DNA of 64,000 nt from an uncultured virus (IMG/VR IMGVR_UViG_3300013004_000029) (IMGVR_UViG_3300013004_000029), one strand, 5' to 3'. Shown: positions 1 to 55,405, counted from the first letter of the stretch. Numbers and translations are program-made. Notes: generated by a model not told the origin, from the sequence alone.

Positions 1-380
1 ATTTGTTAGAGTATTTGTAGGAGTTTGCGTACTAGTACTACTTGGAGTGATTGTGTTAGTTGGCGTATTTGTTGGAGTTCTTGTTACTGTAGGAGTTGCA
101 GTATTAGTTGGAGTAGCTGTATTTGTTGGCGTATTAGATACGGTTGGTGTTACAGTTACAGTACCGGTTAATGTGGGAGTAGGAGTATTAGTGGGTGTTG
201 CACTATTTGTTACAGTATTAGTAGGAGTAGCAGTATTTGTCGGGGTCGAAGTACCTGTACATGTTGGTGTCTTAGTAGGAGTATTGCTGGTTGTTGGTGT
301 TTGTGTTGGTGTTTTTGTTGGAGTAATAGATGGAGTTACTGTAGTTGTAACTGATGGTGTGGGTGTTGGTGGTGGTTCTC
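1..380 (-). repeat. Thr/Pro/Asn mucin-like coding repeat (TPTNTPT...)
   Basis: Degenerate gttggtgt/gtagga repeats encode TPT units on the minus strand. Confidence 0.9.
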
Positions 381-3300
381 CAAGAGCAAAAACACTATTG
401 CTAGATAATGTAATGTCCGTCCAATAACCTAATAGTGCTGTTGGTGCAGATATGTTGCTTGTTGTTGGAGGGAAGAGGCCTAACATATATTCATTATTTT
501 GACCCCAGCCATATAAAACATTACTAGATTGTTTACCAAGAGAATAGGTCGTGCCTGCAAAAACTTCTGTCCAATCCGTAGATGTATTCACCGACGCTGT
601 TGGAACAAGTCTTTCTCTTGCAGTTCCGTCTCCAAGTTGACCATAGAAATTATCTCCCCAGCCATATAGATTACCATCTGTATTAATAGCAAGGGTGTGT
701 TTTTGTCCACTACTTATAAATTTCCATGACATATTACCAATTTTAGTTAAAAATTGTATATATTGTTTACTATTATTACCTATTTGACCATTAGTATTAT
801 TGCCTAATGCATAGAGCTTGTTATCATTTTTTATAGCAAAGAGGGTGCCATTACTATTTGCTGATAATTGTAGGTATTCATCTTTGTTGAATTTCAAAAA
901 GCTATCTTCACCATTGATGCGGATTAATAAATCTGTTTCGCCATCATATAAAACAGCAAAGAAATTTGGAGCTATGCTTACTACATCATAAACTTTTTCA
1001 TCTATAATTGGCTGATAGCTTCTTTGATACTGTATTAAGTCATAACTATATAGCTTACGAGAATCGCTATGAATATAGTATATAGAACTTGCATTCTTAT
1101 AAACAAAACTATAGACATTAGGAGTAACGAACAGCAATTCACCATCAAGGGTAGAAGGTGATTTTTCTCTCCATTCCCATAAAGTATAATTATTTTTGAT
1201 GCCGTACCATAAATTGCCGATATCCTTGGATGGTGATGCAGTTAAGAAGTATGGGTTGCTTATGACTCTTTTCCATCCTGGGACCCTAAATAGGGTTGGG
1301 GTGATACGAGAAATAGTGTCTCCTTGACCTAATTCTCCATTACTATTCAATCCCCAGCTATATAGGCGCTTTTTTCTACTAACACCAAGATAGTGTTTAA
1401 TATTTAACGATGGGTCGGTATATATGGTTGGAGTAACGCTAGGTGTAACGCTACTTGTTGGTGTTTTGGTGGGTGTGATGCTTGGTGTTATCGTATTGGT
1501 TGGTGTTGGTGTTTTGGTAATATTTAGTTGTCCACAAATATTGATAGAATCCAGTAAAATGTTACCTGAAGTTGTCTTGAATACTATTCTATTAGATGGG
1601 GTTGCTGGTGTGTATAATACAACGCCTTCAGTCCAAACAACATTATTTAATGAATGGTTTGGATAAATATCTGGGTTATAGCTAAATACGGTCTGTGTCA
1701 AGCCTACTACCGGATCAAATTCTGATGTTGGATTTTTCCATAATGTAGAACCACTATCCGAACCTATAGCAACTATAAGATTTTTAGCATTGTTTGGGGG
1801 TGTAATTGTAGGCGTTGGCGTTGGTGTGGCCGTTGCCCTAGTCGGAGTTGGAGTAAATGTGACATTCAATACGGTTGATGGATCAGCGATATTAATTCTA
1901 TCATAGTCACTATTTAATAGATATACTTTATTATCATCATATGCAGTATTAATAAATAGAGATCTAATATTTATAACATTATTTAAGTATACATTCGTCT
2001 TAATATCTGTTGTTCCACTAAGAGCTAAAGAATAGAATGTATAAATAATTTGAGCATCGGGATCGTGTAGTATAACTCTGCTGGAAACGGTATTGTAATA
2101 TAACAATGAATTCCCAATTTGAATTGGTTTATTATTTGGATCGAGAATATTTGGAGAGGTACTATTGGCTAAGGTAACAGTGTTGATTCTTAAGAAAGAT
2201 GTTGTTGTATCATTGAAAGGAATAGCGTATAAATTATTAAAAAATTCATCAATAAAGAAATCACTTATTGGACCATAATTAATACTTGCTAAATTTGGAA
2301 CAGATGTAAAATTAGTATCAAAATAGAGCAATGATGGGTCGTTGGGGTCTGCGACTACAGAGTAGCTACCATTAGCAGGATTAAGTAATGATGTGTAATC
2401 CACCATGAAAAAGACTCTTCTGGCATTTGAATCAATTATGGCTTTGCCTAATTGTCCAGCAGATAAATTATGGGGAATAGATGCTATTATTGTGTTGGTT
2501 GTACAATCTATAATATCTATTGTTGAGGCGGTGGAAACATATATGCGATTTAGGGCGTGATCGACTGTTATATATTTGGGAAATTTATTAACGCTAATAT
2601 ATTGTTCAACTGTATCTGTGGATCCATTTATTACTGCTATTTGACTTGTGGTAATCAGGGATACATAGATCTTATTGGTGTTTTTATTGATAGCTGATGC
2701 TCTTGGATTTTTACCAACATTAACAGATTGTCTAGAGACAGAAGTAATCGGATTATTAGTTAATCCTGTTACTATTGTTATATCTTCGCTATTAAAATTA
2801 GTTATATATGCCTTCAGTGTTAAAGGATTGATATCTCCATCAATTGGTCTATTTCCTGTGGAAACAGTGTCTAAAGAAACCGATAGTGGTAACTGATTAG
2901 GCACATTAACAAAGAATATTCTAGAATTACTGCTATTAATAAAAATTAATCTAGGATCGTCGTAAACCTCGTTAATCTTAATAAAAGAGCCAGCATAAAC
3001 TATACCTGAAGTAACAAATACTTTCTTGGTCGAAGAAGTTATGTTAGATGAATATGTTAAGTATAGTGTATTTGTTGATCTGTCATATAGATAAGTTCTA
3101 CCAGTAGCCTGATCATATATTAGGTCTAAGCCAGAAACCATAAGCTTGGTTGTTCCTGACAAGAAACATTCAGCAGACAAGGACTTATTCGTACTCAGAG
3201 TATTCAATTTAAATAGTTGATTATCTTTTCCATATCCTGTAAACTTAAATGTTGCGTGTAGGGTATTTGATGTAGAGTCTATATAGAAGTCTTTTAATGG

Positions 3301-6300
3301 TTCGGATATGATAGTATTAATGGTGGGTGTAACATTACTATTACCATCAAAATATAGGAGGGAGGGTGTGCTGTTACTATATGATGGTTGATCTAATAGA
3401 ACAAAAACCCTATTTAAGGATGTATCTAAAACAACTTTACCTGGTTTAGCATTATATTGTCTGCAATTAATAATATATAAAACTTTATCATTATATCCGT
3501 CTAACACAACAACAGATGTATCTGTAGATACATAAACCTTATTTAATATATCATCTACTGTTATATTTTTTGGCCCATCATTTATATTTATACTACCAAT
3601 AAAAGCATCTGTATTAGTATCTATAATAGTAACCATATTACTAGTATTATTGGCTATATACAGCTTGTTAGTTTTCTTATTAATTCCTAGTGCTACTGGT
3701 CCACCTTGTCCTGTAACGGATGGGGCGAATGTAACAGCATTTAATTCGGATGAAACGTTGAAGAAACTGCTATCTAAAAATAATGCGCTGCCTATTGGAC
3801 GACTGACGGTTCTCTGTACTGCTCCGTCTTTTGCATATATAATATTATTTCCGTCATATGTAATGGATACAACAGTAGAAGTTGTATATGTTCCGAAACC
3901 TCCTCTACTGACATTATTTTCATAAATTTCTAAAATTCCATTAGAATTAAAATACCAACAATAATTTATATCAGTAAAATCAGCATCTGCTTTTGGGTCA
4001 GAGGTTAGACCAAACATTATACCGGCATTGGTTTGTGATGCACGAGCGGAGCAGTATGCGCTTCTTACGAACCCTTCATTGGAGTATACCTGAGCATTCC
4101 AGTTATTACTGCCGGATGTTTTGGCAAATTTTCCGGGAGCAGTATTCACCACGCCACCAGATACTACCGATGTCCACTGTCCAGCTCCTGTGTCGAATGT
4201 ATTCAATGTTTTATATGAATATGGATCTATTACACTAATATTATTACTTAGAGAATTAGCAACATATAATTTACGGTTTATTGGATCAGAAACTAAATCG
4301 ACTGGACCACTACCAACAGTAATTTGTTGATCTAATAAATTTGATGGGGTAAAGTTTCTTCTAGATGGAGTTATACTTGGAGTAACGGTAGGTGTAGGCA
4401 AAAGAATATTTTTATTAGCTATATCTGAGCTATATTTAAATCTTAAAATATATCTTTGGCCAGGACTAGCTAAGAAAGATTGGGACACCCATCCATCGGC
4501 ATTTAGTAACAAGCATTCGTTTCCATCTACAACAGAATCAACATCAGCATTGCTGACAGTGATAGGAAGATTATTTGTAAGTGGGGTAGTAGACGGAATG
4601 AAATTATTCTTATAAGCAACATACCCTTTGACTATCCTAAAACTATTCATGAATCCACTAAATCTGGCAAAATTTTCGCCGTCTGCGCCTATTCTTAGTT
4701 GTCCTAATGATCTTCCCGGTCTAAGAGATGAGATAACTGTTGAACCTATTTGTAGTCCATCTATAAAGAATTTCCAATTATTATCTTCTCTAGTAATTGC
4801 TAAATTATACCATCTTCCAGTAATAGGTTTCCATGGTACGCTAATAGATGAAGAGAATGTTTTATCTCCAATTAATATACCTATATGTCCAACGTTAACA
4901 ACATTTGTTGTGGATGTTCCATTATAATATAGTCCCCATTTATTATTTAATAATGGTCCGTCTGATTGTCCACAGATACCTATAACTTTTGACACATCAT
5001 CAAAATTGATCCACATCTCAAGCGTAAAATCTCCGCTACAAATAAAATCCCAATCTTGACTATCATCTAGATAAATCCAATTCTGAATATTTTGTTTACA
5101 TTTTGTTTGATCTATAAATTTATTAGGACTATTAGTTATGCTGTTACAGTCTGGGTCCAGGATATCTTTTTTCACACATACACAATATCCTCCAGTATTA
5201 TCTCCATAGAACGAATCATTTATTCCTAAAAATAGGTAGCCAGATGATAGAGCTTTACCAGAATATGTCTTTCCAAAAGATATAACATTATTATTGTTTG
5301 ATACTGAACCCAGTGTTGGATTAGCAGAATCAACTATAACACCATTAATATATCCTCCTGAAAAAGGATTCGTTCCATTAAATGTAGCACAGCCTTCACT
5401 GGAGATAAAAATATTTTCTCCTGTATTAAAATAAACACCTGTATTAAAAAATCCAGATTTGTTGGCCTCTAAATAAAAATTATTGCATACTATTGAATCT
5501 TTAATTATAGCAGATTGGTTGAAATAGGCGCTGGATCCTCCAACTCTATAGTTAAGAGTACTGATTGTCGCGTCTTCGTATACTTTTACCGTTTTTCCCT
5601 CTGGGCTAGTATCTAAGAAATTTTGTGAACCATTAGTTCCATTCATAGGTAAAGATAAAGCTATTTTACCTTTATTTGGAGCTAAATTAACAGCATATTT
5701 ATCCCAATCTGTAACCCCATTCTCAAAACTACTATTACTAAGTATACTATTATTAAATATACATGGTGTAGATGGAGGGGTGGTTGTTGGAGTTGCTGTA
5801 GATGTTGGTGTTTGACTTATGCAGGGTGTAAAGCCGTAACTGATGGACGATAAAAAACTGCCTGTAGCAAAACTCGGAGAAGATAAATCTACAAACAAGT
5901 AGAGTCTACCGCTTGTTGTTGGTATATTATTATATGATGTTCCTACCTTGAATGGGGTTCCATTCATTCCTATTTTACCCAACAACGACTGTCTTTCAAA
6001 TATATAATTAGGTCCAACGGTGTTTGGAAGTCCATTGGGTCCGCTTGGAGTACCAAAACTAGAATCTATCGTTCCAATAGTACCTATTACTAGTCGGATA
6101 TTTCTACCATTTGTTATATCTATATCAACGCCAGTATCTAATGGAGTATTTGGTCCATGGGTTTTTGGGTTGATAGTTAAATTATATTTACATTGAGATA
6201 TGATTGTTGTAGGAGTAGGAGTAGGAGTAGATGTTGGAGGTGGGGTTGGTAATGGTTGTGTAATAGTTCCTAGTGGAGCTGCACATAAACCAGCGGTAAC

Positions 6301-6699
6301 ACCATCTTTGGTAAACGCCAAACCATTTCCAGATATACATAGATTCATAGCCCAGTGTGGATTTGGTGTTAGTCTATTTGGTCTAACATCTATGAAATAT
6401 CTTTCACCGCTTAGTGGAATAGGTAGTCCAACAAATGTCTCTTTAGCGGGAGTATTTCCTCCGTATGGGGCATAGATTTTTCCACCAATATTAACAGCAC
6501 CAAATGTATTGTGGTTGATTGTAAATAGGAATATCTCTCTGCGATTTGATACTCCGTCTTGACCAGTTATTACCAAAAAATAATCAAATACCGCAGCATT
6601 ACATCCGTGAGGATTATAAGATGTTAATACTGCTCCATTAAGGGATGGTAATACACCACGATTAATTGATCCATTTATAATTTGTACAAATTCGATCAT
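1..6699 (-). CDS. Giant multi-domain virion appendage/adhesin (>=2233 aa, runs off the left edge): LecA/PA-IL-like, split DUF642-like, LamG, YVTN-type propellers, RCC1 repeats, Thr/Pro linkers
   Basis: ATG at 6699-6697 with AGGAG upstream. Hand translation of large parts is open ([15 protein letters not shown]..., [55 protein letters not shown]) and in frame to base 1. It is probably absent from the ORF track because no stop lies inside the window. Confidence 0.85.
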
Positions 6700-6710
6700 C
6701 TATTTTTCTC

Positions 6711-9700
6711 CTAGGATGTGGCTAACACCCCTACATAAACCCTAAACACCAGATCTCTATCCTTCTTAATACACGAATCATCCTCACAGAAAGCTCCTCC
6801 AATATATTGATTATTTAAACTAATTACCATACCGTATGGATCTGGTAAATCATTATTTGGCATAAATTTAATAGTATATGTAGATCCTGGTATTAAATTG
6901 ATATTAATTCCAGAAGTAATATCCCAAGTATTATATTGATAAGAATTACTGGCCTGAATATTGACACTTTGGCTATGTAATAGTGTCATATTATTACCTG
7001 GTTGTCCACTGTAAATTTGCACTGTACCTGTACCACTATATAATCCAACAAACATAGTTTCTATTCTAGATAATCTACCAAAAATATTATTTGTAAATGT
7101 TTGTGTCCAAGAACCAGTAGCAGATAGTCCTACTATAGCCGATTTATTTGACTGTTCTACACTTAGAACATTCACATATCTCGGACTGGGTGTTGGAGTA
7201 GCAGTATATGTTGGAGTGACTGTATTGGTAGGAGTATTACTGGGTGTTACGGTATTGGTAGGCGAAAAGCTTGGTGTGTTGGTTGGTGTTGATGTGTTTG
7301 TTGGAGTAAATGTGTTTGTTGGAGTATTGCTGGGTGTTCTGGTTGGAGTTACACTATTTGTAGGTGTTTGTGTTGGAGTGGCTGTTGGAGTAGCAGTCAA
7401 TCCTGGAGTTACGGTATTTGTTGGAGTAATTGTTGGAGTTCTTGATGGAGTTCTGGTATTTGTTGGGGTCAAACTTATGGTGGGAGTATTAGTTGGAGTG
7501 AAACTAATAGTTGGAGTGTTAGTTGGGGTGAAACTAATTGTTGGTGTGTTACTTGGAGTCTGACTTGGTGTTGATGTATTTGTTGGGGTTTGACTTGGTG
7601 TTGAGGATATAGTCGGAGTATTAGTTGGCGTATTAGTTGCGGTATTGCTTGGAGTAATAGTAGGAGTAGGACTATTTGTTGGTGTTGGTGTTGGATCATA
7701 TGATCGACAACTAAATGAAAAGTCTTCATACTCTATAGAATCATCTAGTAAAACAGGAGTATTGCCAACATAGGAACCCCAATACCATACAGACCCATTA
7801 CCCTGTATACCATAATTAATATGCTGTCCAATATTTCCATCAAATACTTTAACTTTAGTCCAATCTCCAGGAATTTGAACAGGTGCGTATCTATCTAGGT
7901 TGTCTCCAAGTCCTAACTGTCCATGATTATTCCAGCCCCATGACCATAATGAATTATCTTGTTTGAGCGCAAGCGTGTGATTAACTCCGCAAACAACAGT
8001 TTTCCAATTATTATCACTGCCTATTTCTACAAAAGTAGATGTACCACCGGTACCATTATTTCCAAAACGACCCTCGTTTGATCCTCTGGCAAATAATTTA
8101 CCGGTCTGACTAATCAACATAGAATGATATGGTCCTTCGCTATAGGATAGCGGAGGTAAATTATTATCTGGGGCAAGTGGTATACTAGATACGATAGTTT
8201 TTATACCCGCAGACCTATCAAACTTAGTTACAATATCAATATCTGGACCTTGTGGTATATTGTTTGAAACAGGGAATGGGAAAGCGTTTGGAATAGAGTT
8301 GTACCCACTCATAGACACAAAAGAAAATCTTTGAGTTATCAAAGTTATCCCAGAATGTAATATTGTATTCAATATTCTCATAGATGTTTTGGTGGCTGAA
8401 CTATTGTATGCCGGAATACCTGAATTGACACCATTCGAGATATCTTCAATATTTGCTAATCTACCTAAAGAAGCACTATTATTTCCAATTGGTATAGAAT
8501 ATAAAATATTTATGCCTTTTGGTGCTACAACATAGACATTCTGTGGCAATGGAAGAGAATATCCTGTAGTAGCCCTAATATTTGGATATATGGTCGCCAC
8601 TGGATTTACTGAATAATCATATCCTGGTAATAGTATTCCATTTATACCAGCAGCACGAACTAAAGGATCATCATTTATTACTTTGGTTAATACATATAAA
8701 ATATAATTATTTCTACTAATTTGACCATAGCTGATATCTAGAATTTTTTGATTTGGGAATTTGGAAATAAATTCTGGATAGTAAAATTCTGTAAATATAT
8801 CAGTGTCACGATCATCCGCCCCACCCCAACCGTATAGTTCCGAACCGTCTTCGCTTGCGGCAAAACTGAATGTTAGGTTTTCAGCTATGGACAGAGCCAA
8901 TGTTTTAGACCATAGTTGTGTAGCTAGTTTAGAATCTACTCTTGGATTATCCGCTACTTGTACATAAGTACGACTATCTGGAATAATTCTAAAAGCTTTT
9001 CCTGTTGTATCAGAAACAATATTTTTCCCCCAGAAATACAGATATTTATCTTCTGGTTGAGAAGGTGTTTGTGTTGGTGTTGGTGTGTTTGTAGGAGTAT
9101 TGGTTGTTGTCGATGTTAATGTCGGAGTATTGGTTGGAGTACTAGTATAGGTAGGAGTAGGAGTTTTAGTAAAATACTGTGCTCCACAAGAAACTATATT
9201 ATCGATAATAATACCGTCATTACCATCTACACTGGTTGATAAATCTTGAAATACTACTCTGGTTACTTCCGATGTAGCTGTATATGTTATAATACCATCT
9301 TCCCATTGTAAATTAGTAAGACTATGATTGGGATATGATGCAGAAGAAAACGTGAAGTCTGTCGTTTTCATCTTAGATGATATTGGTTTAATATTTCTCT
9401 TGTCGGCGCTAGACCAATTTATAGATTTATCATTTTCTCCTATGGCTACTCTTACCGTTTTCAAGACATTATTGGGTGTTAGACTATTGCCTGGGTTTCC
9501 GGTATATTTAAACCTAATAGCATAAGAGTCTCCCACATTCGTATAGAACGATTGACTGATCCAACCATTAGTATATCCAGTTAAGCTTACTGCATAGTCA
9601 CCATTACTGAGTGGTCCAACTCCGCCCTGTCCTCCGAGATAGCCTATTTGTTTGTTAGTCCCTCCAAGTACATAAACTCCATAATAATCCCAATTTTCTA

Positions 9701-12017
9701 ATATTTGAGTTTCATTATTTTCAAAGCTTGGATTTTGGATAACATCAGTAAAATAACATTGTGTTCTAGTAGGAGTACTAGTAATAGTTGATGTAACCGT
9801 ATTTGTAGGAGTTTGTGTATTTGTTGGTGTGTTGGTTGGGGTTTGTGTGTTTGTTGCCGTATTAGTAGGTGTTGTGCTGATAGTAGGACTATTACTAGGA
9901 GTCTGACTGTTTGTGGGTGTGTTACTTGGGGTGATTGTGTTTGTTGGTGTGGCAGTATTAGTTGGGGTTCTGGTGTTGGTAGCTGTCGGCGTAGTTGTCG
10001 ATGTATTAGTTGGTGTGGCTGTATTGGTGGGTGTGCAGGTTGTTGTTCCTGTTGGTGTTTGTGTCGGAGTAACAGACATAGTAGGCGTGTTGGTTGTTGT
10101 CGGAGTAACGGGCGGTGTTCTCGTAGGCGTTGCAGTAGGAGTGGGAGGAGGAGTACTAGTACTTGTAGCAGTAGGGGTTGGTGTTGGTATAAGGGTGTTG
10201 ATATCACTGTATACCGCATTAGGAAATACTATATATTTTGTTGATGATGTATTCAGATTTGATAAAGAATTTGCAAATATGGTACGCTCATAATTTTCAT
10301 ATGTTTGACTAAATTCATCATTAGATGTCATTGCAAAATATGAATTTGCAGATAATTGATTGGATAGCTGTGTTACTATGCCAGCAAATGTAGTGGTAAT
10401 ACCAGAGATATTGAATACCGTACCGTCGCTTCTAATAGCGTCTATACTAACACCCGATCCGGATCCAAACCACGGAGCACTTAGAGCAATATCTGTCCAT
10501 GTCGCTCCTCGTGTTGATGCTAGTGGTATGGTAGATAAACTATGTGCTGGTCTCAGATTACTATCGAATGCAATACCTGGATTATATGATATGTTGTATA
10601 ATAATACTATTTCATTTGTTTTGGTTAAAGCTATGAAAAAACCATTTGCTGCACTTTTATAGCCCATAAGAGAATTTACAGCTATAACTTTTTTAAATGA
10701 ACCATAAACAGTTACAGGCGTTAATGAAATATCGGTCCATAATTTTAGATCATCATTACCGTCTATGCCATATGCTGTATATGCTGAGTAGCCTGGGGCA
10801 GTAGATCCTCCTTGTATATTCCTTAATCCTCCGTCTGCGCCCAAGGTCGTTAATCTAGGATAGTCTACTACTCCGAGAGTTGGAACGTTTGGACCCCAAA
10901 CATAAACCTGATTCAGAGTATTTACTCCATAAAAACATCCATGCACATAGTATATATCTTTCCAATTATCTGCAACAGAACCTTCTATAGTAATTCTGGT
11001 TAACCATCCAGCAGTATTAGCGGGTACGCAGGTTGGTGAACCAGATCTGATATTGGGCCAATCAGTGTAATATGGACTAGGGATAGTATATGATCTGTGC
11101 TGATTGTCTCCAGGAGAGGTATAATTTGTTCTACCATCATTGGCAACATTACTATGAGAAGAAATATAAACCGAATTATACATATCTAGAATTTTTGCAT
11201 AATTACCGGCATCATTAAATCTCCAGCTGGGTCCATTTGAACACGAAGTTATACCAGCTTTAGCATTTAGGATGGTTGTAAGAGTTCCAGGATTACCATC
11301 TCCAAGAACTTTTCTATATTCTGGTCCAAATAAAGCCATTCTTTGTGGACTATAAATATCTATAGTATTGGTATAGCTAAATATTGGTGATTGTGGGCGA
11401 TCATACATAGGATATGTTCTACTAATAAAAGTTCCACCACCAGCTATACTGCCGAAAATAGTTGGAACTCTTTTTCTATATCCCAAACCCAAGCCGCTAT
11501 ATGCTTCTAGACGAGACTGATCCAGATTTTGATAAACATTATTATTTACAATAGTCCATAATTGTCCTGTTGTTGTAATAGCGTGAAGAGAAAATGGTGT
11601 TAATAAAACCTTTTTCCATTTTTTCCCCGAAAGCTGTGGCCAAGAAGCAAATTTATTAAACATAGTTTGATATGGATTGGCATCAAATTGCCCAGCATAT
11701 ACATAATGTTTTGGGGCGTGTAAGTAGACATCTCCATTATTGTCAACAATAGCAAAAGATCCCACATAAGGAGGACATAGATCGGGAGCATTATTATATC
11801 CATCAGCTATTGGATTAGTATAACAACTACTAAATGACTGTACTCCACCACCAATATCAATAGCTTCAGGAGCAAAAGTGTTGTGGTAAAATACTGATGA
11901 TGGACTGGTATTATAAATACCTCCTAAACCCACATATTGACCACAACTTGTGTCTCCAAAACTTCCATATATCTGTGGATTATTCCAGGGATTATATCCT
12001 TTAACATATATCGCCAT
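6711..12017 (-). CDS. Large virion appendage protein: RCC1-like repeats, DUF642-like carbohydrate-binding domain, long Thr/Pro linkers
   Basis: RCC1 blade [37 protein letters not shown]...[21 protein letters not shown] (DUF642/choice-of-anchor-C-like); three PT tracts. Confidence 0.75.
7180..7695 (-). repeat. Thr/Pro mucin-like tract (about 170 aa), includes tandem [10 protein letters not shown] units
   Basis: Seen in the translation of 6711..12017. Confidence 0.9.
9765..10195 (-). repeat. Thr/Pro mucin-like tract (about 140 aa)
   Basis: Seen in the translation of 6711..12017. Confidence 0.9.
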
Positions 12018-17240: not shown

Positions 17241-19544
17241 TTAGTTAATAATCCATACAGAGTCTTTGTTTACTACACCCTGAGAAACATAGACCCTTAA
17301 TTCTGTGATTATATTTAAATTATCTCTAACGTCTGAAGATCTGTACCATGACTTATCCGCTCCAGCTACTATGTATATACCATTTTCAATAGGATCTGTT
17401 TGGTTTTTAACTAATACTCTATCATTAATGGATGTTTGTATTCCATCTATTACAGGTAGTCCTGTTAGAGTTATATTAGCAACTGTAGCTAAACGAACCT
17501 GTCTAATAATAACATCATCAACACATCTCAAGTCAGATTGTATAGCACCTTGTGTTGAAAAATTGGATGGTAATAACCATTCACTCTTAGAATTAATGTT
17601 GCCTTGTTGTATGTAAACAGGACAATAGTTATCTTGTGATCCGGCTAAATTATCGGAGAATAATTTGCACCATTCTCCTGTGGTGGGAACATAAGAAACT
17701 AAAACCCAAGGAGCAAATTGACTACCAGAATTTTGTACAGTATACACATCTGAACCTGTCCATGTATTTCCTCCAATATTATTCTTAACTAATACTAAAT
17801 CTCCATTATCTAAAGATATTCCATCTATAACGAGCGGAGATCTAGAACCTGTCATTATAGCTGATCTATATGATCCAGATAGATTTGTGTATGGTAGTGC
17901 TTCTGTGGTACCAACCTTAACTATGAGATAGTTTCTCATAGCACATCTATTAACCAAGCTTGGTGTGGGCGTATTGGTAGCTGTAGGACTACTTGTGACC
18001 GTAGCTGTTGGTGTTGGTGTGGATGTTGTTGTTGGTGTTGGAGTATTAGTACTAGTCACACTAGGAGTAGGAGTATTGGTTGGTGTCTGGCTAGGTGTAG
18101 TAGTATTTGTTGGGGTCTGAGTGTTAGTAGGTGTTGGTGTTGTAGTCTGAGTTGGTGTGCTTGTAGCCGTATTTGTCGGAGTTAATGTGTTTGTAGGAGT
18201 TGGAGTAGGTGTGACATTAATAATTTTACGACAATCATCAGAAAAATAGAAACAGATATTGCTATTTACGGGATCGTTAATAAAGAAAACAGATGCTCCT
18301 GTACAATCTGTTACATTCTTATATTCTTCTGACTCACAAGATACTAATACAGATCTACTCTTTAATAGATTTCTACTATCATCATATAAATTAATGGTTA
18401 AATAATTCAGTTCGCAGAATTCTTGTTTAACCGCGATGAAAGCTGTTGTTAAATACTCATAATACTGTGCAACAAAATTATCTTCAGTAGAATATACCTT
18501 AACATTATCTGTTCCAATAATTTCAAAAAAGTATCTATTGCCAATATTTAAATTAACAAAAACAACCTGTATTCTATGATGAGGAGAAATAAGCTTATTG
18601 TTAGTGCAGCAACCTAGGAAGTACGCTGGTTTATCAGTACCTATACATTCATCGAGAGGATAGTTGGTTGGGCTAGGTGTTGGTGTTTGACTGGTAGTAT
18701 TGGTCGGTGTTAATGTAGTGGTTGGTGTTGCGGTCAGTGTTGGTGTTAGTGATGGAGTAATAGACTGTGTTGGTGTTGATGTATTGGTAGGAGTAACTGT
18801 AGGTGTTGCTGTAGTAGTTGGTGTCGCACTATTCGTTGGTGTGCATGTATTAGTTGCAGTATTAGTAGGCGTCTGTGTTGGAGTAGATGTGTTAGTCGGA
18901 GTAGTTGTATTAGTAGGAGTATTTGTTGGCGTTGGCGAAACTGGTGGTGTTTCACTTGGCGTAGGGGAGTTGGTTGGTGTCTGTGTAGGAGTTGTAGTAT
19001 TAGTTGGTGTTTGGGAAGGCGTTGCTGTATTAGTAACAGTATTAGTTGGTGTGTTAGTTGTTGTAGTAGTCGGAGTTGGTGTTGAAGTTGGAGTCTGGCT
19101 ATTAGTTGGAGTATTTGTTGTTGTGCTTGTGACAGTAGAGGTGGGCGTATTTGTTGGCGTCTGACTAGGAGTATTGGTGGGAGTTGGAGTATTAGTAGGC
19201 GTTGGAGTTATACCGGGAGGGATTCCTCCACAGTCTAGTGTTATATTATCCTCTACAACCTCATCTGTAGAAAGATCTGTCAAAGAAGCATTAAAAATAT
19301 AATATCTTGCATCTTGACATGTGGCCTTGACCAAGAAATTACCAAGAACAGTAGAATTGGCAACAAAAGTTTCATAAGGAGGATCAAAACTAACTGTGCC
19401 GTCAGAAGTAACTTTTGTAAAATTTAATTGATAGCTATGGCCAGGAATTAATCCACTAATATTTAAAAAGATTTCTACTCCTAATGAACAAACATCAGGA
19501 TTATTGGTTTGAATAATAGTTTTTGTAAATTGTAGACTTAACAT
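17241..19544 (-). CDS. Tail-fibre-related protein: two Cys-capped repeat domains, long PT tracts, two C-terminal tail-fibre-type domains
   Basis: [19 protein letters not shown]...[17 protein letters not shown] matches a motif common in phage tail fibre proteins. Confidence 0.65.
18660..19210 (-). repeat. Thr/Pro mucin-like tract (about 180 aa)
   Basis: Translation of 17241..19544; a second tract lies at about 17960-18215. Confidence 0.9.
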
Positions 19545-25049: not shown

Positions 25050-28000
25050 TTATGCTATATTTTTTCCGGGAATGACTCCTGGTTTAGATGCTGTTCCTTC
25101 TCCTGATCCGTTCCTGTCGTAGTTTTTGAGTTGTTCTCCGGCTTGAGCAAGGATGGTGTTCTTTAATTGTTCTGGTAAATTGGCCATTACTTCTCCACCG
25201 TTTAATGTTACATTCACACCTAAGTTCTCACTAGTCAATCTAATTTCAGTTGGTATATTTACCGCAGCTAATTGGGTCAATAATGAATCAAGTTTACCTG
25301 CAAAAGCTTCTAATCCGCTAGTGTTCAATACACCAGCACCTTGATTTTGTTGGCCGCTAGAGGTGGGAACTGCTCTTGGAGCCGATACAGGTGCTCCAGA
25401 TGAGGCTGGAGGAGTATAGGCACCGCTACCTTGTCTTGGTTGTGGTATCTGAGGAGGTAGTGTTTCTCCTGTTCCTTGAGGAACTGATGGGGCAGATGGT
25501 GGTACTTGTCCTGCCATGCCTGCTGCTGCACCAGCCTGTACTCCTTGTGGCTGATATGTCACGCCAAGTTTTTTCTCCATTCGTGCCCTGGTTTCAGGAT
25601 TTAATCTACTTAAATATTGTTGCTGTCTTTCTGATCTAACTTCTTCAGCACTCATGCCTCTAATATATGCTTCTTTATGAACATTTTGTAGACCCATTGG
25701 TCCGGGTCTGCTTGGTTGTTGTTGTTGAGTAGGAGTTATTGCTTGTGTTGGTGGAGCATTATTAACATTAGCCATATTAGTCGCAGCTTCTCCGACCATA
25801 CCAGCTACTTGTTGTTCTGTTTGTAGATTAGCATAGGATTGAGCAGCGGCCTGGGAAGGGTCTGTGATCTGTGTATTGCCAAACATATCTACATTAGAAG
25901 ATCCATATACTGTTGGTCTTTGAACACCCGGTTTTGGAGCCGATGCGGCGATAGCTTGTCTTTGTTGTGCTGGTGTTTGAGCATTTCCTGTAGTAAAATC
26001 ATCTGGTTTGGATACTGCTCCAGGTACGCCGGAATATGCAACATTAGGATCGGAATTATCGACAGCCGTTCTTCTTGGTGGGGAAGATGCGGAACCATTC
26101 GTATTTGCTGCTGTTGTGGGCGTAGGTGTCGCTGCTTGATTTGCAGCAGCATTCTGTGTTGGAGTAGTGGGTGTAGACGGCTTAGAAGGTGGAACACCAT
26201 CAACCATTTCAATAAGAGACTGTTTTCTTTTTGCAAAGTCTTCTTCGGATTCTCCGGGTAAAGCGTGTTCTTCGTAGTTCATACCAGATGCAGAAGCCGT
26301 AAGATGTTTTTTACCCTTAGCATCTCCAGTTAGCACAGCATTCTCTTGTTCTTTTTCACGTATTGTTCTTTCTGCCTTTTGTTTGTCTTCATCAGTCACC
26401 GCACTAGCTCTGGCCTTTTTAGCTTCTTCAATCTCAGCTTTATTTTTGGCTACTCTTTCTTTAGTTTCTTCTGGTGTAAGTGCTGGTTTGCCTGGATCTC
26501 CGGGTTTATCTTTTCCTACTTCCCCTGGAGCTGTAATGCCAGCGATCTTAGCTTCTTCCATAGCTTTTTTAACTGCTTCTGCACCCTTTATCATAGCGTC
26601 TTCAATTACTACGCCTGTTTTAGCTATAATTTCTTCTTTCTCATTCATTAATACTGTGTTGGCTGTAGCAGCAGCTTCTTTGAGAGCAGCTTGTTGGCCA
26701 GCTAAAGCGTCTTGTAATGCTTTGACTTTTGGATCTTCTTTAGCTCCTTTTTTCATCATATCTATATAATCTTTCATACTCTTGTCACCAATTTTCATTT
26801 GTGACGTATCTATTCCTCTAGCAGCAAACATGCTTTCATATACGCTGCCCATCATCTTACTTTGAGCATCTGGATCTACCGCACCTAATAGTGGAGCTAA
26901 CTCTTTGGCCATACTAATAGTATCGCCACTTTCCTGTGCATATGCTTCTTGGGCTGCTCTTTGGGCTTGTTGATGACTACCACCTTGATTACGCACTTGA
27001 TTATATGCCTTATTAGCAGAATAAGATTCTTGGAAGCTGACTCCTTTACCACTTAATGTTCTATTTAGGTTATTGAAGGTATTGCCCATTTTCTTCAAGT
27101 CTTGTGGTGTGGATGTTAATACCTTCTCCATGAATCCACCAGCAGCACCAAGTTTAGCAGCTCTCTCTTGCATTACATCTTGTAGTTCTTGCATTATGCC
27201 ACTAATATTGTCTTTAATATCATTAGGCAAAGCCATAATTTCATCACGAGCTTGTTTTGTAGATTGAGCAAATTGTGCTGTTGCATTAGCCGCTGCTGCC
27301 ATAGCTCCAGTTGCACCCTTAACAGCATTAGGATCTCCACTCATTAATGCTGGTCTACTAGCTTCATTAACTTGTTGTTGATTCTCTGCTGCCTGATTTG
27401 TTGCTGTTTTTAATTGATTATATCTATTAAGCATAGCTTTTGGACTAGCCGCAACGTCTGGCGTAGTACCAAGTCTCATTGCTCTAGACTGTGTTCTAAC
27501 AGCAGCATCAGCTTGCCATGAGATTTTCTCTCCAGTTCCTCTTCTGAATGCTAGGGTACTATTTGCAATAGTAGAGAAAGTATCTGCATTATTGTTTCTA
27601 ACTTCTTGATCTTTAGATGCTCCTTTTTGAGCAGCATCGCTCATCATAGCTATAGCATTGGCTGCTGTCTGGGCTTGTGCTTTTAATGCTTCCATAACCT
27701 TTCCAGAAGCTGCTATCTTATCGGCTAATTCTGGTACAGCCTTAAGTAAATCATTGAAGTCTAATTGAGAGATGTCTCCTTCAAAACCATCAACAAACGT
27801 TGATATCTTTTCTTTCATGCTTGCAGAGATATCAGGACCAAAAGCTTGTTCAACAGTTTTATTCATAGCATCCTTGACACTAGATCTGGTTTCTGAATCG
27901 TCTTTACCAGATGCCGTGGCTTCTTTAACAGCACTTCCAAAACTTTGTTCTAATTTACGAGGCAGTACTGCTGACTGAACCATTGCTTCGCTACTAGATC

Positions 28001-31000
28001 CTGCCATACCAGCATTTTGACGAGCAGCTTGTTCAACCTCATTTATACTGTATGCATTTGGATTGGATAATATATCAGCAGATTTAGAAATTTGACCTTG
28101 TTGTAAAGCAGCTGACGGATTGTCTATAGCTTCTATACCAAGTTTTCCATTTTCCATTATTTTATCTGCTTTGGCAGCAGCACTATTTAGAGCATCGGCC
28201 ATTCTTTCAAATGAAGTGCTGACTTTTTGTGCTGCCTTAGAGGCTTTAGCGTTTTCTTTTGCTAATTTGGCTGCTTCACCAGCCGCTTTTAGATCCGCCC
28301 CTTGTCTTTCCATTGCTGCTTTTCTGGCGCTCTCTAATGTTTTAGCTTCTGCGTCAGTAACCTTACCATCTGCATAAACAGCTTCTAATAAAGATTGATA
28401 TCCTTTATCTGTAAGTGCTATAGATTCAGATAATTGATTAAATTCTGATCTTGGCATTGAAGATTCTAGTTCTTCAAGAGTTTTCCCTGTCTTTTGCATT
28501 TTAGCCATTAACATTTCTTTTGCTGCATCTGCTGCTGGCTGTGCTGACTCTACTCTTTCGTCTACAGTTTTGGCAGAAGATGGTCCTACGCCAGCGGACC
28601 ATTCGGCCCATGTTCTTTCTTTTTTCTTAGCTCCAGCAACAGCTTCTTCTCTACTAGCAGATGCTATCGTAGTAAAATTAGCTTGCGCTCTAGCTTCTGC
28701 TTCTTTTCTAGTTTTTTCAGGAGCTTGGGTATTTGCAGCAATCGATAAGTCTTGAGACATTTTACCTCTAGCTTTATCTATTGTCTCCATTCTTTTTTGA
28801 CTAGCTGCTTGTCTTTCTATCTCTGGCATTTGAGACTGACCATATAACGCACCACCAATTCCGCCTATAGCGGCACCAGCGGCCATACCGAGAGGTCCAA
28901 ATGCTGAACCCATCATCATACCCATTGAAGCGCCAGAAACTGCCGATCCTCCAATAGTAGATATTTGTCTACCTTCTTTTGATTTGTCTCCTCCTGCGGC
29001 TTTACTGAAGTATTCAACACCAGCACTACCCAACATGGATATGCCCATTTCGGCAGCATACATTCCCATGCCGCCCATACCACCACCGCCGCCTCCACGA
29101 CCCCCTTTACCAAAACCTCTTTTACGTTTACCGTCTGGACCTCTGGTGACACCATCATCACCCATTTGTCCACCACCTCCGCCCATACCAAAAAATCCTC
29201 CAACTCTCCCCATAATACCATTACCGGTGCTTCTCCATCCTTGTTTGCCTCCACCGATATCAACTTTTTTCATACCCATCAAACTACCAACAGCACTATC
29301 TGCACCTTTTGCTAATTTAATGATACTATTTACAGCACCTCCGACAGCTTGAGATAATGCTTTGGTTGGATTGCTTCTTAATGTAGCAGCAAAAGAACCA
29401 ACTCCACCGCTAGCTTTAGATAAGCCACCAGCTAATGAGGCGGCTCCACTATGTAGTCTGGCCATACCTCCAGCAACCTTAGATGCACCAGCAACAATTG
29501 GAGCAAAAGCTTTATTTGCTGTAGCCAATATAGCAGAACCGGATGTTCCTCCTGCGGCCATACTACTAGCTTTATTCTTGAATTTTGTTGCTGTTGTACT
29601 GTATTGTTCAGCTCTAGCATTATTTCTTTCTATATAGTTTTTCTTTTGTGGAGCTACAGTAATATCTCCACGCCCAGCATTTGCTAGTGCTTTATGAGGA
29701 TCTTGTCCAGTACTAACAGCACCAGCATAAATTGCTGCTCCTTGAGATTGTGATTTTCTATTTTGTTTAGCCTGTTCTAAAGCTTGTGATGCAGATCTTT
29801 GAGCTTCTTCTTTGCTAGCTCCTGCTTCTCTAGCTCTTCCGTATGCTTGTCCAGCTACTAGCTTTTCTTCTTTTTTGGACATTGGTTTAGCTAATGTTTT
29901 TGTTCTTTCTAAAACTTCGTTTCTAGCATAAGTTTTAGCTTCTGTGGCTGTCTTACCCGATTTTCTAGCTTCTTGATATTTATTTTTTTCAAAATCTTGT
30001 AAGTCTTGAACAGTTTTTGCTCTATTCGCTTCAAAATTGGCGGATGAGGTAATCTCTCTACTTTTGGGTGAAGCAGGACCATAGGGCGTTGGGCCAACTC
30101 TTTCCTTTTTCTCTTGTTTAGCGGTCACCAAACCATTGTCAGATTTCCACTTTTCTATTTTTTGTTGTTTAGAAGCAAATTTTACCGCTGTTTCTTCTTT
30201 TGCAATTTTAGAGGCTTCTGTTGCAGAGGCTCCGGATTTTACGGCGGCTTTTTTCGCATTTTTTTCAAATTCAGCTTTATCTTTATCATTCTTTTTAATT
30301 GTATCTGTACTAGAAGTTATATGTTTAAGTGGCTTTAGGTCAATTTCAGAACCACCTTTTTCTATTGTTCTTGCTAGTTTTTTCATTGCTGCTTGCACAT
30401 CATTTATCGGCCACTTTTCTACACCTTTTTCTAATTTTTCAAAAGCAGCAGAATTAGCTTGTATACTTGCTCTTAGTTTAGCAGCATCTCTTGGAGACAT
30501 ACCAGATAAAGCTTGGTCTATTACGCCACCAGCAGCTAATTTTTGTACAGAGCCTCCGCTGTGGTATTTCGGTAATTTTGCTAAAGTTTGAGCAGCAACT
30601 TTGCCTCCCCTATTTAATTTTCTAAGAGTATGATGTCCAATTTGACCAGCAGCGTGTTTGTTAATAACAAATTCACCCTCTTGAGCCATAATCGGAATTT
30701 CTCCTCCGATAGCGAAACTACGAGATTCATTTAATTGAGACCCATATTGCTCAAGCAGTCTTCTTTTCTGGGTTTCTGCTCGTGTTTTTCTTTCTTCTGC
30801 TTCCCATATTTGTTGTTGATAGGGGTTTTTAACACTCTGACCAGTTAATTTTCCAAAAAATCCTGGTTTTATATCATGGCTTCTAAAAGTTTGTATACCA
30901 GATTCGGCATCTTGAATTTCTTTATCTAGTCTTTTTATAGTGTCTTTTAGTTCTAGTTTTTGCTGCCTATTAAGAACAACAGTAATACTTCCTGGTTTAG

Positions 31001-34000
31001 GACTTACTTTTGATTGAATAGCAGCTTGTTTAGTTTGTATTGGTGTTGATGGTCTTGTTGCTGTGACCAATGCTGGTTTAGAAGTCGAAGTTATCGGTTT
31101 TGCGGATGGTGGGGTTGATTGTTGAGATAATCTATATTTTCTTTGAGATAATCTGTCTATCTCATCTTCTAATTTATGTATTTCTGTTTGATATGGATTT
31201 TGTTTACTTCCAAAAAAACTAGTTTTTGTATGACTTGCTAAAACCTGTCTTCTAGCATTTAGATCATCAATCTGAGATTGTATAGCTAAAAGCTCACCAC
31301 CAGATGATTGTGTCCTAGATGTTTGCGCGACAACAGGTTTTCTTCTTATTGGCCTTAATGAACCACCAGCAAATCTTTGGATGGGTCCGCCATTTGCCTT
31401 TAAGAACTCAAACTGCATATGTTTAAGAAAAGGAGTATATTTTTCATCATTCATATCAACAATATCTGAGCCTTTGATAATATTAGGCTGTTGTTGATAT
31501 CCATAATTAAGTGAACTATTTGGATCTTTATCTATTGTATGGTGTTTAGCATCTAATGGTATCTTTGTGACTTGAGAGCCATATTTATTATTGGGTTGCG
31601 ATCTTTCATTGGCATAAGTATCCCAAACCTTTTTAGCGTGTTGACTTACTTTTCCTCTGTGTGAGGTTAATACTCCACCTCTAGCTGTTACAGCTTCCAT
31701 TACGGCATCATAAAGTCTTGGGCCATATCCTTTAGTAGCCTTGCTCAATCCAATATTCCAAATTCCCTTTTCTATTTCTTTAGCTGTTACAAAACCTTCT
31801 CTTACATTATTCTTGAAATAGAATGCTGTTATTTCATGACCAGATGATCTTAATCCTATTTTACCAAATTGTTTTTGTGGCTTGGGAGGCATACCTCCTT
31901 GAGCAAGACCGTATCGCTCCGGGTATCTTCTGGCTAATCTAGCTAAAACTAGGTGGGGTCTGGATCCTGCTTTACTTTTTAGTGATGTTTTTTTAGCTCT
32001 TAGAGATTCTATAGCTTCAACAATACCTGGTTGTTCTGTTCTAATTTTCTCTGTAATCCTGGATGGATATGCAGTTAAAGCCTTCTCTATTTCAGATACT
32101 TGTTTATTTGTTCTAGATTGTGTTTTATCAATAATTCTTGGTAAAATTTGTTGTCTATTGGCAAGCTGACCGGCTCTAGATTTTAAATCTTTTTCTACTT
32201 CTGGATGAAACCCACTAAAATCTCCTCTTAATATTCTTTCTCTAGCTGCTGTTCCACTTTCTCCATTGGGATCTCGGGGTACTTCTCTTACTCCAAAACC
32301 AGCTTCTTGATATTTCTTTAAAGATTTTTCATCTTTACCAGCAACTAATGCTTCACTACCTTTGGCTCTACGAATAAATAATCTTCTGCCAGTTTCTGGA
32401 TCTTTGCCCACATCAAAAACGTGAGGAATAGCAAAACCAGATGTTTTTTTACTGACATAAGCATCAGGAAATGCTTTTTGAGCTAATTTATGTCTAAACT
32501 CTTGAGGAAGCAATGCTGTACGAGCAGAATGGATATCTGTGCCAACAGGTTCATTAGGACCAACCAAAACTAATTTTTTATGTTTAGCATTAGACATCAA
32601 TCCTTGATCATGACCAGCTTTTGTAGGAGGAGAAAAACTACCAAATCCAAGACTGATCTGCTCCTCTTTTACTATAGGTAGTTCATTTTGTCTTTTGATT
32701 CTTTTCTTGAAATTGGGCAGCAGACCTAGGGTTACTAGCTTGCTTTTATCTCTAAGACCCATCTGTAACATTGCTTCAGTTTCACCACTATCTTGAGCTG
32801 TTATAGTATGAGTTCTTCCGTATTGCTTTTCTCCAGTTGCTGTTCTATGTCTTAATTGTTTCTTTAAGATTTTCTGTTCTTCTTTTGTACTACTAGATAA
32901 TGCTATAACTCTATCAGAATGATTTAAGTCAACCAATCTATCTGGAGATACCGAAGCTGCTGTATCTATTATACTATTTGCTTTAGATACATCCCCTAAT
33001 GTTTCGATAGGAAATCTATTTGTTTTACGTAAAGTAGCATTATCTGATATTTGTGTTCTCTGATTTCCTTCCGCAAAAGAACTTTTACCACTACCGGGCG
33101 AACCCACTACTGTGGTTAGTCTGGATAGTCCGCCAGATTTTCTAGCTTTGATAGCTTCTTCAGTAAGAATTCTCTTATATTCATCGAGATTAACTCCAAG
33201 TCTTTCCATTTCTGCTTTAGCTTTTGGACTATTTCTTAAAAAGTCACTATCTATCCAACCAACATTACGAACAGCTGGTTGTTTTGATTTTATGCCACCA
33301 CCTTTAGCAAAAAATTGATCTGGCTGAAAAGGTATCTCTCCTCCTCCATATCTCTTAAGTTGTTGAGCAAGCTCTAGTTGTCTTGGGGTGGGACCTGTGG
33401 TAGTTCTTAAAGAATCTGTCAAAGATGTAACATTTGTTTTGAGAGATAATTTACGACTTCTTTCCTCTGTTCTTTTTTGAATATAAGCTTTAGCTTCCTG
33501 AAGATTGTATTGATTCGTTTTTAAGAAATCTAGAACTTGATTGTGTTCCCATTTTGGTAAACCACTTCTATTTAATAGGTCGAAAAATTCTTGACCAAGC
33601 CTATTGGATTTTGTACTTCCGAATGGACTTGCTCCAACACCCTTTTCGTTAGGCACTAATTTATATGTAGATCTAGATAATTTACCACCATTAGCAAATT
33701 TTTGGATTATACCACCCATAGCTCTATTTTGAGAAGCTCTTAGAGAAGCTAATCCTCTACCTATCTGACTAGATGTTCTTTGTCCTTTAGAATTTCTACT
33801 TTTGCCTACTGCTTTTCTTTTTGCTGCTTCTGCTAGAGTTCTTCCTCCTTCTCCTCCATATGTGATGTCTGTTGGCACACCAGCAGCCTGTGGAATACCG
33901 AAGACTTTAGCTAGTTCTGGAGATAGGCCAGAAGCACCAAGATCTATAGAACCTAATGGTTTATCGATACCCATTAATCCTAAGATAGCTTGTTCTAACA

Positions 34001-55404: not shown

Positions 55405-55405
55405 A

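Follow-up and report, generated by a model that had tools for sequence, protein, structure and literature searches.

A three-piece DUF642-like domain as the predicted hub of a nested, fibre-like protein in an uncultured tailed phage

Introduction

Can a domain that is contiguous in one phage gene be carried in three widely separated pieces by a neighbouring gene, and would such pieces still make a single fold? The question is raised by an open reading frame (ORF) in a 64,000-nucleotide stretch of DNA from an uncultured virus (IMG/VR record IMGVR_UViG_3300013004_000029; the whole stretch is called the window below). The ORF lies at window 6699..1 on the minus strand and runs off the window. A first-pass annotation, made from the sequence alone, had described it as an adhesin with domains nested inside loops of other domains. 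We looked for a stop codon or a frameshift within it and found none: it is a single open frame of 2233 amino acids (aa). Another IMG/VR record, G001 (80,257 b), is 100% identical over window 1-6699 and holds the full gene, with 137 further codons and a stop past window position 1; the complete product, hereafter the nested protein, has 2370 aa. G001 extends 56.7 kb past window position 1, and the two records joined give at least 120.7 kb.

We consider it likely that this is a distal tail-fibre-like protein in which a three-piece DUF642-like hub carries nested inserts, and that it arose by successive in-frame insertion. In the arrangement that we propose, a DUF642-like beta-sandwich of ~190 aa would form the hub, which the chain would leave and rejoin twice. 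The first excursion, made without linkers, would be a LamG domain, one loop of which would itself hold a PA-IL/LecA-like lectin. The second, made through two conserved Pro/Thr linkers, would comprise two YVTN-type propellers, the first of them with a 160-aa module between blades 1 and 2. Once the sandwich had closed, an RCC1-like propeller would follow and, after it, a small C-terminal domain. The result would be a topologically branched polypeptide displaying up to six carbohydrate-binding-type modules, built by the stepwise, in-frame insertion of whole domains into surface loops. In all, ~1,260 aa lie in two loops of a ~190-aa host. The nesting is read as three levels deep because the profile matches are collinear, because piece 3 touches only pieces 1 and 2 in a complex model, and because the inserts have fold matches to LamG, PA-IL-like, and YVTN domains; on these same grounds we retain the nested-domain architecture of the first-pass annotation. 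The analysis itself shows the split, the nesting, the variable presence of the innermost module among relatives, and purifying selection on the pieces; glycan binding by the modules and a place on the virion are deductions from them and from the setting of the gene.

Three collinear DUF642-like pieces

The protein encoded by the neighbouring gene, P0002, contains the DUF642-like domain in contiguous form, as had already been recognised (Table 1). Used as a BLASTP query, this domain gave three collinear matches to the nested protein: aa 1625-1734 (piece 3; E 1e-19, 37% identity over 118 aa), aa 735-762 (piece 2; E 5e-6), and aa 313-407 (piece 1; E 0.019), the last being convincing only over its first ~25 residues. 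The pieces thus lie where the first-pass annotation had put them, at aa 313-337 (nt 5763-5689), 736-757 (4494-4429), and 1635-1734 (1797-1498).

A search of 1.84 billion representative proteins gave 44 relatives of the contiguous P0002 domain at E <= 0.001, nearly all of which carry it unsplit or in tandem copies. None of the 44 has only one of the two big inserts, a weak negative, as split domains score poorly in this search. We built a profile from the P0002 domain and 42 contiguous relatives (43 domains), and it matched the nested protein as a whole with an E value of 4.3e-16 in a 5-sequence search. Profile positions 10-27 fell on aa 311-335 (independent E value, iE, 0.15), positions 58-97 on aa 725-762 (iE 8.6e-8), and positions 101-177 on aa 1638-1736 (iE 1.9e-8). 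The gathering score (27 bits) of Pfam DUF642 (PF04862), a galactose-binding-like domain found in cell-wall proteins of plants and in PEP-CTERM proteins of bacteria, was passed by 11 of the 14 relatives scanned, and sequence comparison indicates that the phage copies are homologous to bona fide DUF642 domains through such intermediates. Unlike classical members, the phage copies fall under the Pfam cut-off, and they have a terminal cysteine pair that is not seen in the classical members of the alignment.

The same three ordered, non-overlapping segments recur in all three orthologues of the nested protein. These came from a homology search in which 8,000 candidates were scored and 29 proteins returned at E <= 0.001; the orthologues, P0004 (the L010 gene), P0005, and P0006, are 2219-2226 aa long and 65-76% identical to the nested protein. 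All the records involved are metagenomic, and an assembly chimera or a frame artefact could in principle imitate such an architecture. We regard this as vanishingly improbable: the same open frame and domain order are present in four independent records (window/G001, L010, P0005, and P0006) at 65-76% identity, and the window and G001 differ at only 2 of the 17,000 overlapping bases compared.

If the pieces belong together, piece 3 should recognise pieces 1 and 2 and leave the inserts alone. In a complex prediction, aa 308-766 (pieces 1 and 2 with the LamG domain and its insert) formed one chain and aa 1628-1738 (piece 3) the other, with 4-row orthologue alignments. Three runs gave an interaction prediction score from aligned errors (ipSAE) of 0.80, 0.81, and 0.80, and all three controls scored 0.00. 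At least 87% of the contacts recurred from run to run, and the predicted local distance difference test (pLDDT) score was at least 76 for the piece-3 chain and 81 for the long chain. The confident interface on the long chain consists of residues 313, 333, 335, 340, and 729-765, that is, of pieces 1 and 2 only; no residue of the ~390-aa LamG unit takes part in it. The residue pairs with the lowest error run antiparallel (750:1696, 752:1694, and 754:1692; 737:1708, 738:1707, and 739:1706), as expected for strands within one sandwich.

It should be noted that the mark applied to ipSAE, which is reached by 116 of 157 solved complexes and by 2 of 215 mismatched pairs, is only approximate here, with our own 4-row alignment, and that a model of this kind supports binding and does not show it. 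Halves of split proteins tend to pass such a test, which is the very question put to it here. Within these limits, the model supports the view that the three pieces fold as one domain. The assembly anticipated by the first-pass annotation is in this way supported by the complex score, its controls, and the strand pairing, the AlphaFold2 models themselves being poor.

A LamG domain with a PA-IL-like insert between pieces 1 and 2

The first insert has ~386 aa, and Pro/Thr linkers are absent from this gap. A LamG domain had been proposed here, and Pfam Laminin_G_3 (PF13385) was found at aa 553-690 (46.8 bits when the entire protein was scanned, 51.9 bits for aa 338-735 by itself; cut-off 27.6). 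A phmmer comparison of aa 338-735 with the 29 proteins gave matches in 21. In six of these, all tandem-LamG proteins (P0010, P0021, P0023, P0026, P0028, and P0029), there was also a weak match to aa ~346-397 (iE 0.0017-0.7), which sits at most 45 residues upstream of the LamG core, the part that matches aa ~550-710. Likewise, a LamG-unit profile made from 70 full units matched with positions 9-56 on aa 356-396 (iE 0.1) and with positions 61-216 on aa 543-709 (E 1e-33). The LamG domain is split at the same place in all four orthologues, the nested protein included. In fold searches, the core (model residues 230-405, with a local pLDDT of only 40-76) matched CBM40, pentraxin, and LamG chains at Z scores of 10-11.6, pointing to a ConA-like jelly-roll fold; the best were 2v73_B (Z 11.6, root-mean-square deviation (rmsd) 3.5, 154 residues aligned) and 4pbp_A (Z 11.4).

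Between the two LamG parts lie ~146 residues with an AlphaFold2 pLDDT of 41-78 per 10-residue block. Their model matched 6ygq_A (Z 10.4, rmsd 2.9, 99 residues aligned, 24% identity), 5odu_A (Z 9.8), and 3zyb_A (Z 9.7, 98 of 121 residues aligned, 24% identity). These matches to PllA-like, EclA, and PA-IL lectins span nearly the entire 121-residue fold, with 97-99 residues aligned at 22-24% identity, and they cover aa 402-514, agreeing with the LecA-like domain that had been placed at nt 5490-5180 (aa 404-506). The ESM Atlas gave a lead in the same direction, a cluster with PA-IL on 17% of its members (score 0.91). PA-IL itself is a tetramer; the domain predicted here differs in lying within a LamG loop and not as a free tetrameric lectin. 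A sequence search of the PDB with the insert returned no lectin at E <= 10. Its best match there, to kinesin motor domains (E 0.15), was judged to be due to chance. The 120.7 kb recovered contains no second copy of the PA-IL-like domain.

As a separate observation, third-codon-position identity to the L010 gene is 0.75-0.90 across the LamG core (window ~4680-5130, aa ~523-672), compared with 0.51 over the full length of the gene; the phage lineages of the window and L010 may recently have exchanged this segment.

Two YVTN propellers on Pro/Thr linkers between pieces 2 and 3

The second insert (aa 763-1634, ~872 aa) begins and ends with a Pro/Thr linker, at aa 763-786 and aa 1613-1634. YVTN-like propellers on Pro/Thr stalks had been expected between these pieces, and the YVTN repeat TIGR02276 of NCBIfam was found in two stretches (40.8 bits, cut-off 27.85), together with seven-bladed YncE-type propeller families that scored under their full-length cut-offs. 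Propeller 2 is 25% identical to propeller 1, and the two are paralogues. AlphaFold2 gave a pLDDT of 61-74 for blade 1, 77-91 for blades 2-5 (about aa 1000-1150), and 64-89 for most of propeller 2. The best structural match was 1l0q_A, an archaeal S-layer YVTN propeller (Z 19.5, rmsd 4.1, 218 residues aligned, 24% identity). Its aligned range, model residues 8..400, starts before the 160-aa insert and ends after it; this supports, without settling it, the view that blade 1 and blades 2-5 make up one propeller, as the range gives only the first and last aligned residues.

The linker that leads into the propellers (aa 763-786) shows 96% amino-acid identity to L010 and 38% third-position identity, and we conclude from this difference that it is conserved for a reason at the level of the protein. 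We had also considered that its DNA might be kept identical between phages as a substrate for recombination; with third-position identity at 38%, this was rejected. The linker is more conserved than any folded domain of the nested protein, which suggests a specific role, for example in packing on the hub, in glycosylation, or in processing at its SRRN motif.

A 160-aa module inside the first propeller and insertion as a probable process

One step of the proposed process appears to be visible among close relatives. The orthologues align end to end with the nested protein except for aa 840-999, which are missing from all three; the rest of the nest is kept, and the junction is clean, in frame, and between blades 1 and 2. 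The first-pass annotation had seen an interruption at nt 4180-3750 and called it ConA/SPRY-like. The discrete block stands, with its ends now at aa 840 and 999, and the label is kept as a lead only: a phmmer search of the PDB gave a best E value of 0.47, a 10-sequence profile found nothing there at E <= 5, and AlphaFold2 pLDDT is 22-49. The one pointer towards SPRY comes from the ESM Atlas (rank-9 cluster, SPRY on 35% of members, score 0.89). The module is 41-51% identical to internal modules of ten other proteins. Among the nine module-bearing proteins scanned with Pfam, five have phage tail domains, namely Phage-tail_3 (two proteins, one below the cut-off), Peptidase_S74, Peptidase_G2, and Gp34_trimer.

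We read the module as a gain in this lineage because it is present in one of four orthologues, absent from propeller 2, higher in GC than its surroundings, and widespread in other tail proteins; no rooted tree underlies this reading. The reverse, an ancestral module deleted cleanly and in frame in the other three lineages, would also leave the presence and absence that we see, and deletions between short repeats are common. We hold it to be fairly improbable, given that the most divergent orthologue (P0006, 65% identical overall) is without the module, as is the paralogous propeller 2, that the GC content of the module is 0.40 (0.28 at third codon positions, GC3) compared with 0.29-0.31 (GC3 0.09-0.21) in the flanking blades, and that close modules occur in unrelated tail proteins. 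A second copy that might have served as donor was not present in the 120.7 kb recovered.

The gain of the 160-aa module would not be the only insertion of this type. A more distant fibre-like protein, P0035 (2839 aa), has the same order of DUF642-like domain, Pro/Thr linker, and RCC1. Its second DUF642-like copy (region aa 1851-2244) is contiguous across both sites that are interrupted in the nested protein and holds a complete, uninterrupted LamG domain elsewhere (LamG-unit profile positions 3-214, 90.9 bits, aa 1982-2189). This domain sits between DUF642-like profile positions ~120 and 121, and the last strands of the host resume at aa 2185-2244 (37.1 bits). With LamG at this third site, the loops in which this host domain has taken up a whole domain number three. 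The precise presence or absence of 160 aa and the third-loop LamG of P0035 both support the in-frame loop insertion that the annotation had put forward.

Weighing the nested reading

Several observations weigh against the nested architecture, its proposed role, or the means by which they were deduced. Piece 1 (iE 0.15) and the N-terminal LamG match (iE 0.1) are non-significant alone, the latter being nonetheless consistent. Nothing in the split protein corresponds to profile positions 28-57, so that between pieces 1 and 2 one or two strands may be missing or have given way to others. Pfam DUF642 gave no match to the split protein at E <= 0.1, and even the contiguous P0002 copy (22.9 bits, E 7.8e-5) lies under the 27-bit cut-off. 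No Pfam family matched at E <= 1 for aa 400-520, PA-IL (PF07828) included, nor for the 160-aa module, SPRY (PF00622) included; when the subdomains were scanned singly, Pfam named only Laminin_G_3 and NCBIfam only the propellers. The AlphaFold2 models made from 4-row alignments were poor (mean pLDDT 43.5 over aa 309-766, 54.1 over aa 780-1630), and neither was confident for the N-terminal LamG strands, the 160-aa module, or a central stretch of ~135 residues in insert 2, nor good enough to tell how pieces 1 and 2 pack when piece 3 is absent. Caution is needed with fold matches drawn from such models, and only the better-scoring blocks were used for the fold search. PHROGs assigns the nested protein to no tail-fibre or Dit family and names only its RCC1 part. 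As for the host, terminase relatives (76-79% identical, on short contigs) are in bins labelled Alphaproteobacteria and Flavobacteriales; these labels conflict, and therefore we claim no host.

Some of these points would suit a different explanation, in which the three pieces are decayed relics of an ancestral DUF642-like domain, broken up by insertions or recombination, that act only as spacers between LamG, the propellers, and RCC1, with no shared fold and no hub. The weakness of piece 1 (E 0.019 in BLASTP), the unmatched stretch of the profile, and the pLDDT of 23-34 that AlphaFold2 gives to pieces 1 and 2 in the model without piece 3 are on its side. However, such a low confidence is also the expectation for an incomplete sandwich, and the complex model unites exactly these pieces. 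The pieces are moreover among the best conserved parts of the protein: columns invariant among the four orthologues make up 60% of piece 1, 69% of piece 2, and 53% of piece 3, compared with 38-56% for the PA-IL-like and LamG parts. They are under purifying selection, with proportions of nonsynonymous and synonymous differences of 0.17 and 0.75 (the latter saturated) between the window and L010 genes. Finally, relics would not be expected to keep the cysteine at the start of piece 1 (Cys313) and the one near the end of piece 3 (Cys1722), both of which are invariant in the orthologues. We therefore give the relic explanation very little credit. Piece 1 is accepted because of its collinearity, its conservation, and the complex model.

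In the 43-domain alignment, this cysteine pair is confined to a phage-fibre subgroup. P0002, P0033, P0034, P0036, and P0039 have both residues, and in copy 2 of P0035 the first is aligned, with the second lying in the last strand, which is displaced there. A disulfide between Cys313 and Cys1722 probably staples the ends of the sandwich.

Table 1. Features of the nested protein and its reference domain (window coordinates; aa numbering of the nested protein unless stated)
Feature	Position	Strand	Basis or remark
Nested-protein ORF	1..6699	-	aa 1-2233 in window, 2370 aa in all
N-terminal domain (aa 1-150)	6250..6699	-	no family in Pfam/NCBIfam scans; 28% of columns invariant among 4 orthologues
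Second domain (aa 165-300), between Pro/Thr linkers	5800..6207	-	faint likeness to PA-IL-like insert
DUF642-like piece 1 (aa 311-337), begins near conserved Cys313	5689..5769	-	BLASTP, profile, conservation, complex model contacts 313, 333, 335, 340
LamG N-terminal strands (aa 345-397)	5509..5667	-	weak collinear matches to tandem-LamG proteins; LamG-unit profile
PA-IL/LecA-like lectin domain (aa 402-514), whole insert about aa 398-542, in LamG loop	5158..5496	-	fold matches (VIA-align); ESM Atlas lead
LamG core and C-terminal part (aa 543-715)	4555..5073	-	Pfam Laminin_G_3; LamG-unit profile; fold match
DUF642-like piece 2 (aa 724-762), two strands	4414..4530	-	BLASTP, profile, complex model interface 729-765
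Pro/Thr linker into insert 2 (aa 763-786)	4342..4413	-	conserved as protein
Blade 1 of YVTN propeller 1 (aa 790-839)	4183..4332	-	1l0q_A alignment spans model residues 8..400
Innermost insert (aa 840-999), predicted 160-aa tail-fibre module	3703..4182	-	indel in orthologues; homologous modules; GC; 'SPRY-like' only a lead
Rest of YVTN propeller 1 (aa 1000-1275)	2875..3702	-	TIGR02276; AlphaFold2 blocks; 1l0q_A
YVTN propeller 2 (aa 1276-1612), uninterrupted paralogue of propeller 1	1864..2874	-	internal 25% match; TIGR02276; fold match
Pro/Thr linker out of insert 2 (aa 1613-1634)	1798..1863	-	sequence, orthologue alignment
DUF642-like piece 3 (aa 1635-1727), ends near conserved Cys1722	1519..1797	-	BLASTP, profile, complex model, Cys pair
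RCC1-like propeller (aa 1760-2105), after nest and Pro/Thr linker	385..1422	-	Pfam RCC1 87.1 bits, RCC1_2 59.5 bits; phrog_7220
Long Pro/Thr linker (from aa 2106), to ~90-aa C-terminal domain outside window	1..384	-	sequence
Contiguous DUF642-like domain of neighbouring gene (P0002 aa 754-956), reference for split domain	9150..9758	-	Pfam, BLASTP, profile; aligns collinearly to all three pieces

Genomic setting and probable role

The window covers the structural arm of a tailed phage, and nearly all of its genes are on the minus strand. Large terminase (51652-53691), portal (49408-51600), and tape-measure genes lie upstream of the nested-protein gene on the same strand, and this block includes a protein with a tail-fibre PHROG family (17241-19544); the terminase and portal were likewise assigned with PHROGs. 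The tape-measure protein (window 25050-37202, minus strand; 4050 aa) matches PHROG tape-measure families with E values down to 1.8e-20. Tail length follows a rule of ~1.5 Å per tape-measure residue; by this rule-of-thumb estimate, the predicted tail would be ~600 nm and exceptionally long.

Downstream of the tape measure, the nested-protein gene follows at a distance of ~18 kb and 11 ORFs. From this position and the kinds of domains present we infer that its product is a virion component and acts as a multivalent tail-tip adhesin. By analogy, its modules would bind host surface glycans, as DUF642-like, LamG, PA-IL-like, YVTN, and RCC1-like types commonly bind carbohydrate or occur on cell surfaces.

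The ~40 kb downstream of the tape measure (51984-91748 in merged coordinates, made up of window 1-24000 and G001 beyond) are taken up by one large fibre-like gene after another, all with many Pro/Thr linkers; the products have 1768, 2370, 686, 906, 1085, 287, 611, 651, 1918, 2274, and 561 aa. This block amounts to an unusually large adhesion arsenal.

Such a setting allows for another role. The nesting could be real and the protein not the receptor binder: it might decorate the tail as an accessory with weak affinity for environmental polysaccharide, mucus, or particles, or else be a structural spacer of the very large tail-tip complex. Primary host recognition would then fall to the product of another of the large fibre-like genes downstream, of which there are ~10. 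Candidates for the latter are at hand (1768, 1918, and 2274 aa among them), the nested protein has no tail-fibre PHROG family, and the carbohydrate-binding modules (CBMs) that decorate evolved Dit proteins are described as binding the host with lower affinity than the true receptor-binding protein (RBP) (PMC7291167). On the other side, every module that could be identified (LamG, PA-IL-like, and DUF642-like) belongs to a carbohydrate-binding type, and fibre and central-fibre proteins also contain the innermost module; neither fact separates primary from accessory binding. We regard an accessory or spacer role as the less likely case, albeit a serious one, and retain the adhesin as the working assignment; the multi-lectin receptor-binding protein of the first-pass annotation is a plausible reading.

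Comparison with known systems

Both nested insertion and the placement of lectin modules in loops of phage tail proteins are already known. In siphophages, evolved Dit proteins carry one or two CBMs in loops of a galectin domain, which provide extra host-adhesion sites (PMC7291167). Evolved Dit/Tal proteins and the nested protein are alike in that a beta-sandwich, of lectin type in the former and predicted in the latter, hosts modules in its loops. They differ in that the host here is DUF642-like and part of a 2370-aa fibre-like protein, not a Dit adjoining the tape measure; the gene does not directly follow the tape measure, and the product has neither a Dit family nor a tail-fibre PHROG. The inserts here are also larger (~1,260 aa), include whole propellers, and hold inserts within inserts, to three levels.

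More generally, domain insertions have been reported in 20% of multidomain proteins, with nesting to six levels in cyanobacterial RpoC2 and with inserts that are generally smaller than their hosts (PMC13114784, Protein Sci 2026). Examples in that ECOD/AlphaFold catalogue (RpoC2 SI3 and NdhH) share with the nested protein an A1-B1-C-B2-A2 topology and a host with more than one insert. In contrast, the inserts here (about 386 and 872 aa) are 2x and 4.6x the size of their host (~190 aa), the larger one hangs on Pro/Thr linkers and does not rely on close termini, and the context, a putative phage adhesin, has a live presence/absence polymorphism. What is unusual here is the depth of the nesting together with ~1,260 aa inside a host of ~190 aa. 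Our literature search, which did not extend to subscription journals, found no paper on DUF642 in phages, those naming both being plant studies; nor, judging by titles and the starts of abstracts among the papers listed, did it find one on nested phage fibres.

Phage RBPs are usually described as linear strings of swappable modules. In the nested protein, new predicted binding modules would have been added sideways, into loops, with the rest of the fibre undisturbed, and one such step is caught between close relatives. The size of the inserts runs against the general trend towards inserts smaller than their hosts (PMC13114784), and the Pro/Thr linkers and the possible terminal disulfide may be the enabling features. 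It is tempting to go further and to see in the DUF642-like sandwich a reusable, insertion-tolerant hub that has taken LamG at site 1, a propeller pair at site 2 (in this clade), and LamG at site 3 (in P0035), with inserts that are themselves hosts and total 6.6x the host, a disulfide spanning 1,409 residues, and a mode of RBP evolution distinct from end-to-end swapping. This wider proposal is tentative, and we place it somewhat short of an even chance. If true, the hub would be a natural scaffold for branched multivalent adhesins made from one polypeptide, and it could be used in domain-insertion work and in re-targeting phage adhesins. There is also a practical side, in that finders of contiguous domains miss the DUF642-like host entirely.

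Flanking domains and further observations

The nest is framed by domains at both ends of the protein. The N-terminal domain possibly anchors the protein to the virion. The second domain (aa 165-300) has no Pfam family; a single comparison with the PA-IL-like insert gave an E value of 0.015, with the common stretch 'G..Y......SG.L.L', and this domain may be a second PA-IL-like lectin. At the other end, the ~90-aa C-terminal domain (aa 2280-2370; L001:8338-8610, plus strand, outside the window) matched no family in our scans and has a paralogue at residues 139-229 of the 686-aa product of the gene that follows (32% identity, E 2.5e-18).

Regarding the phage as a whole, a related IMG/VR contig of 232,683 b encodes orthologues of both the nested protein and P0002, and given its length the family may be one of jumbo phages. 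Among isolated phages, the tblastn matches were to Bacillus phages, at only 24-25% identity. No tRNA genes were found in the window. Adjoining the packaging genes are two nucleotide-sugar epimerase-like genes and a glutamine amidotransferase/GlmS-like gene (window 54391-55419, minus strand; 57392-59218 and 59222-60142, plus strand), which may represent phage-encoded sugar metabolism.

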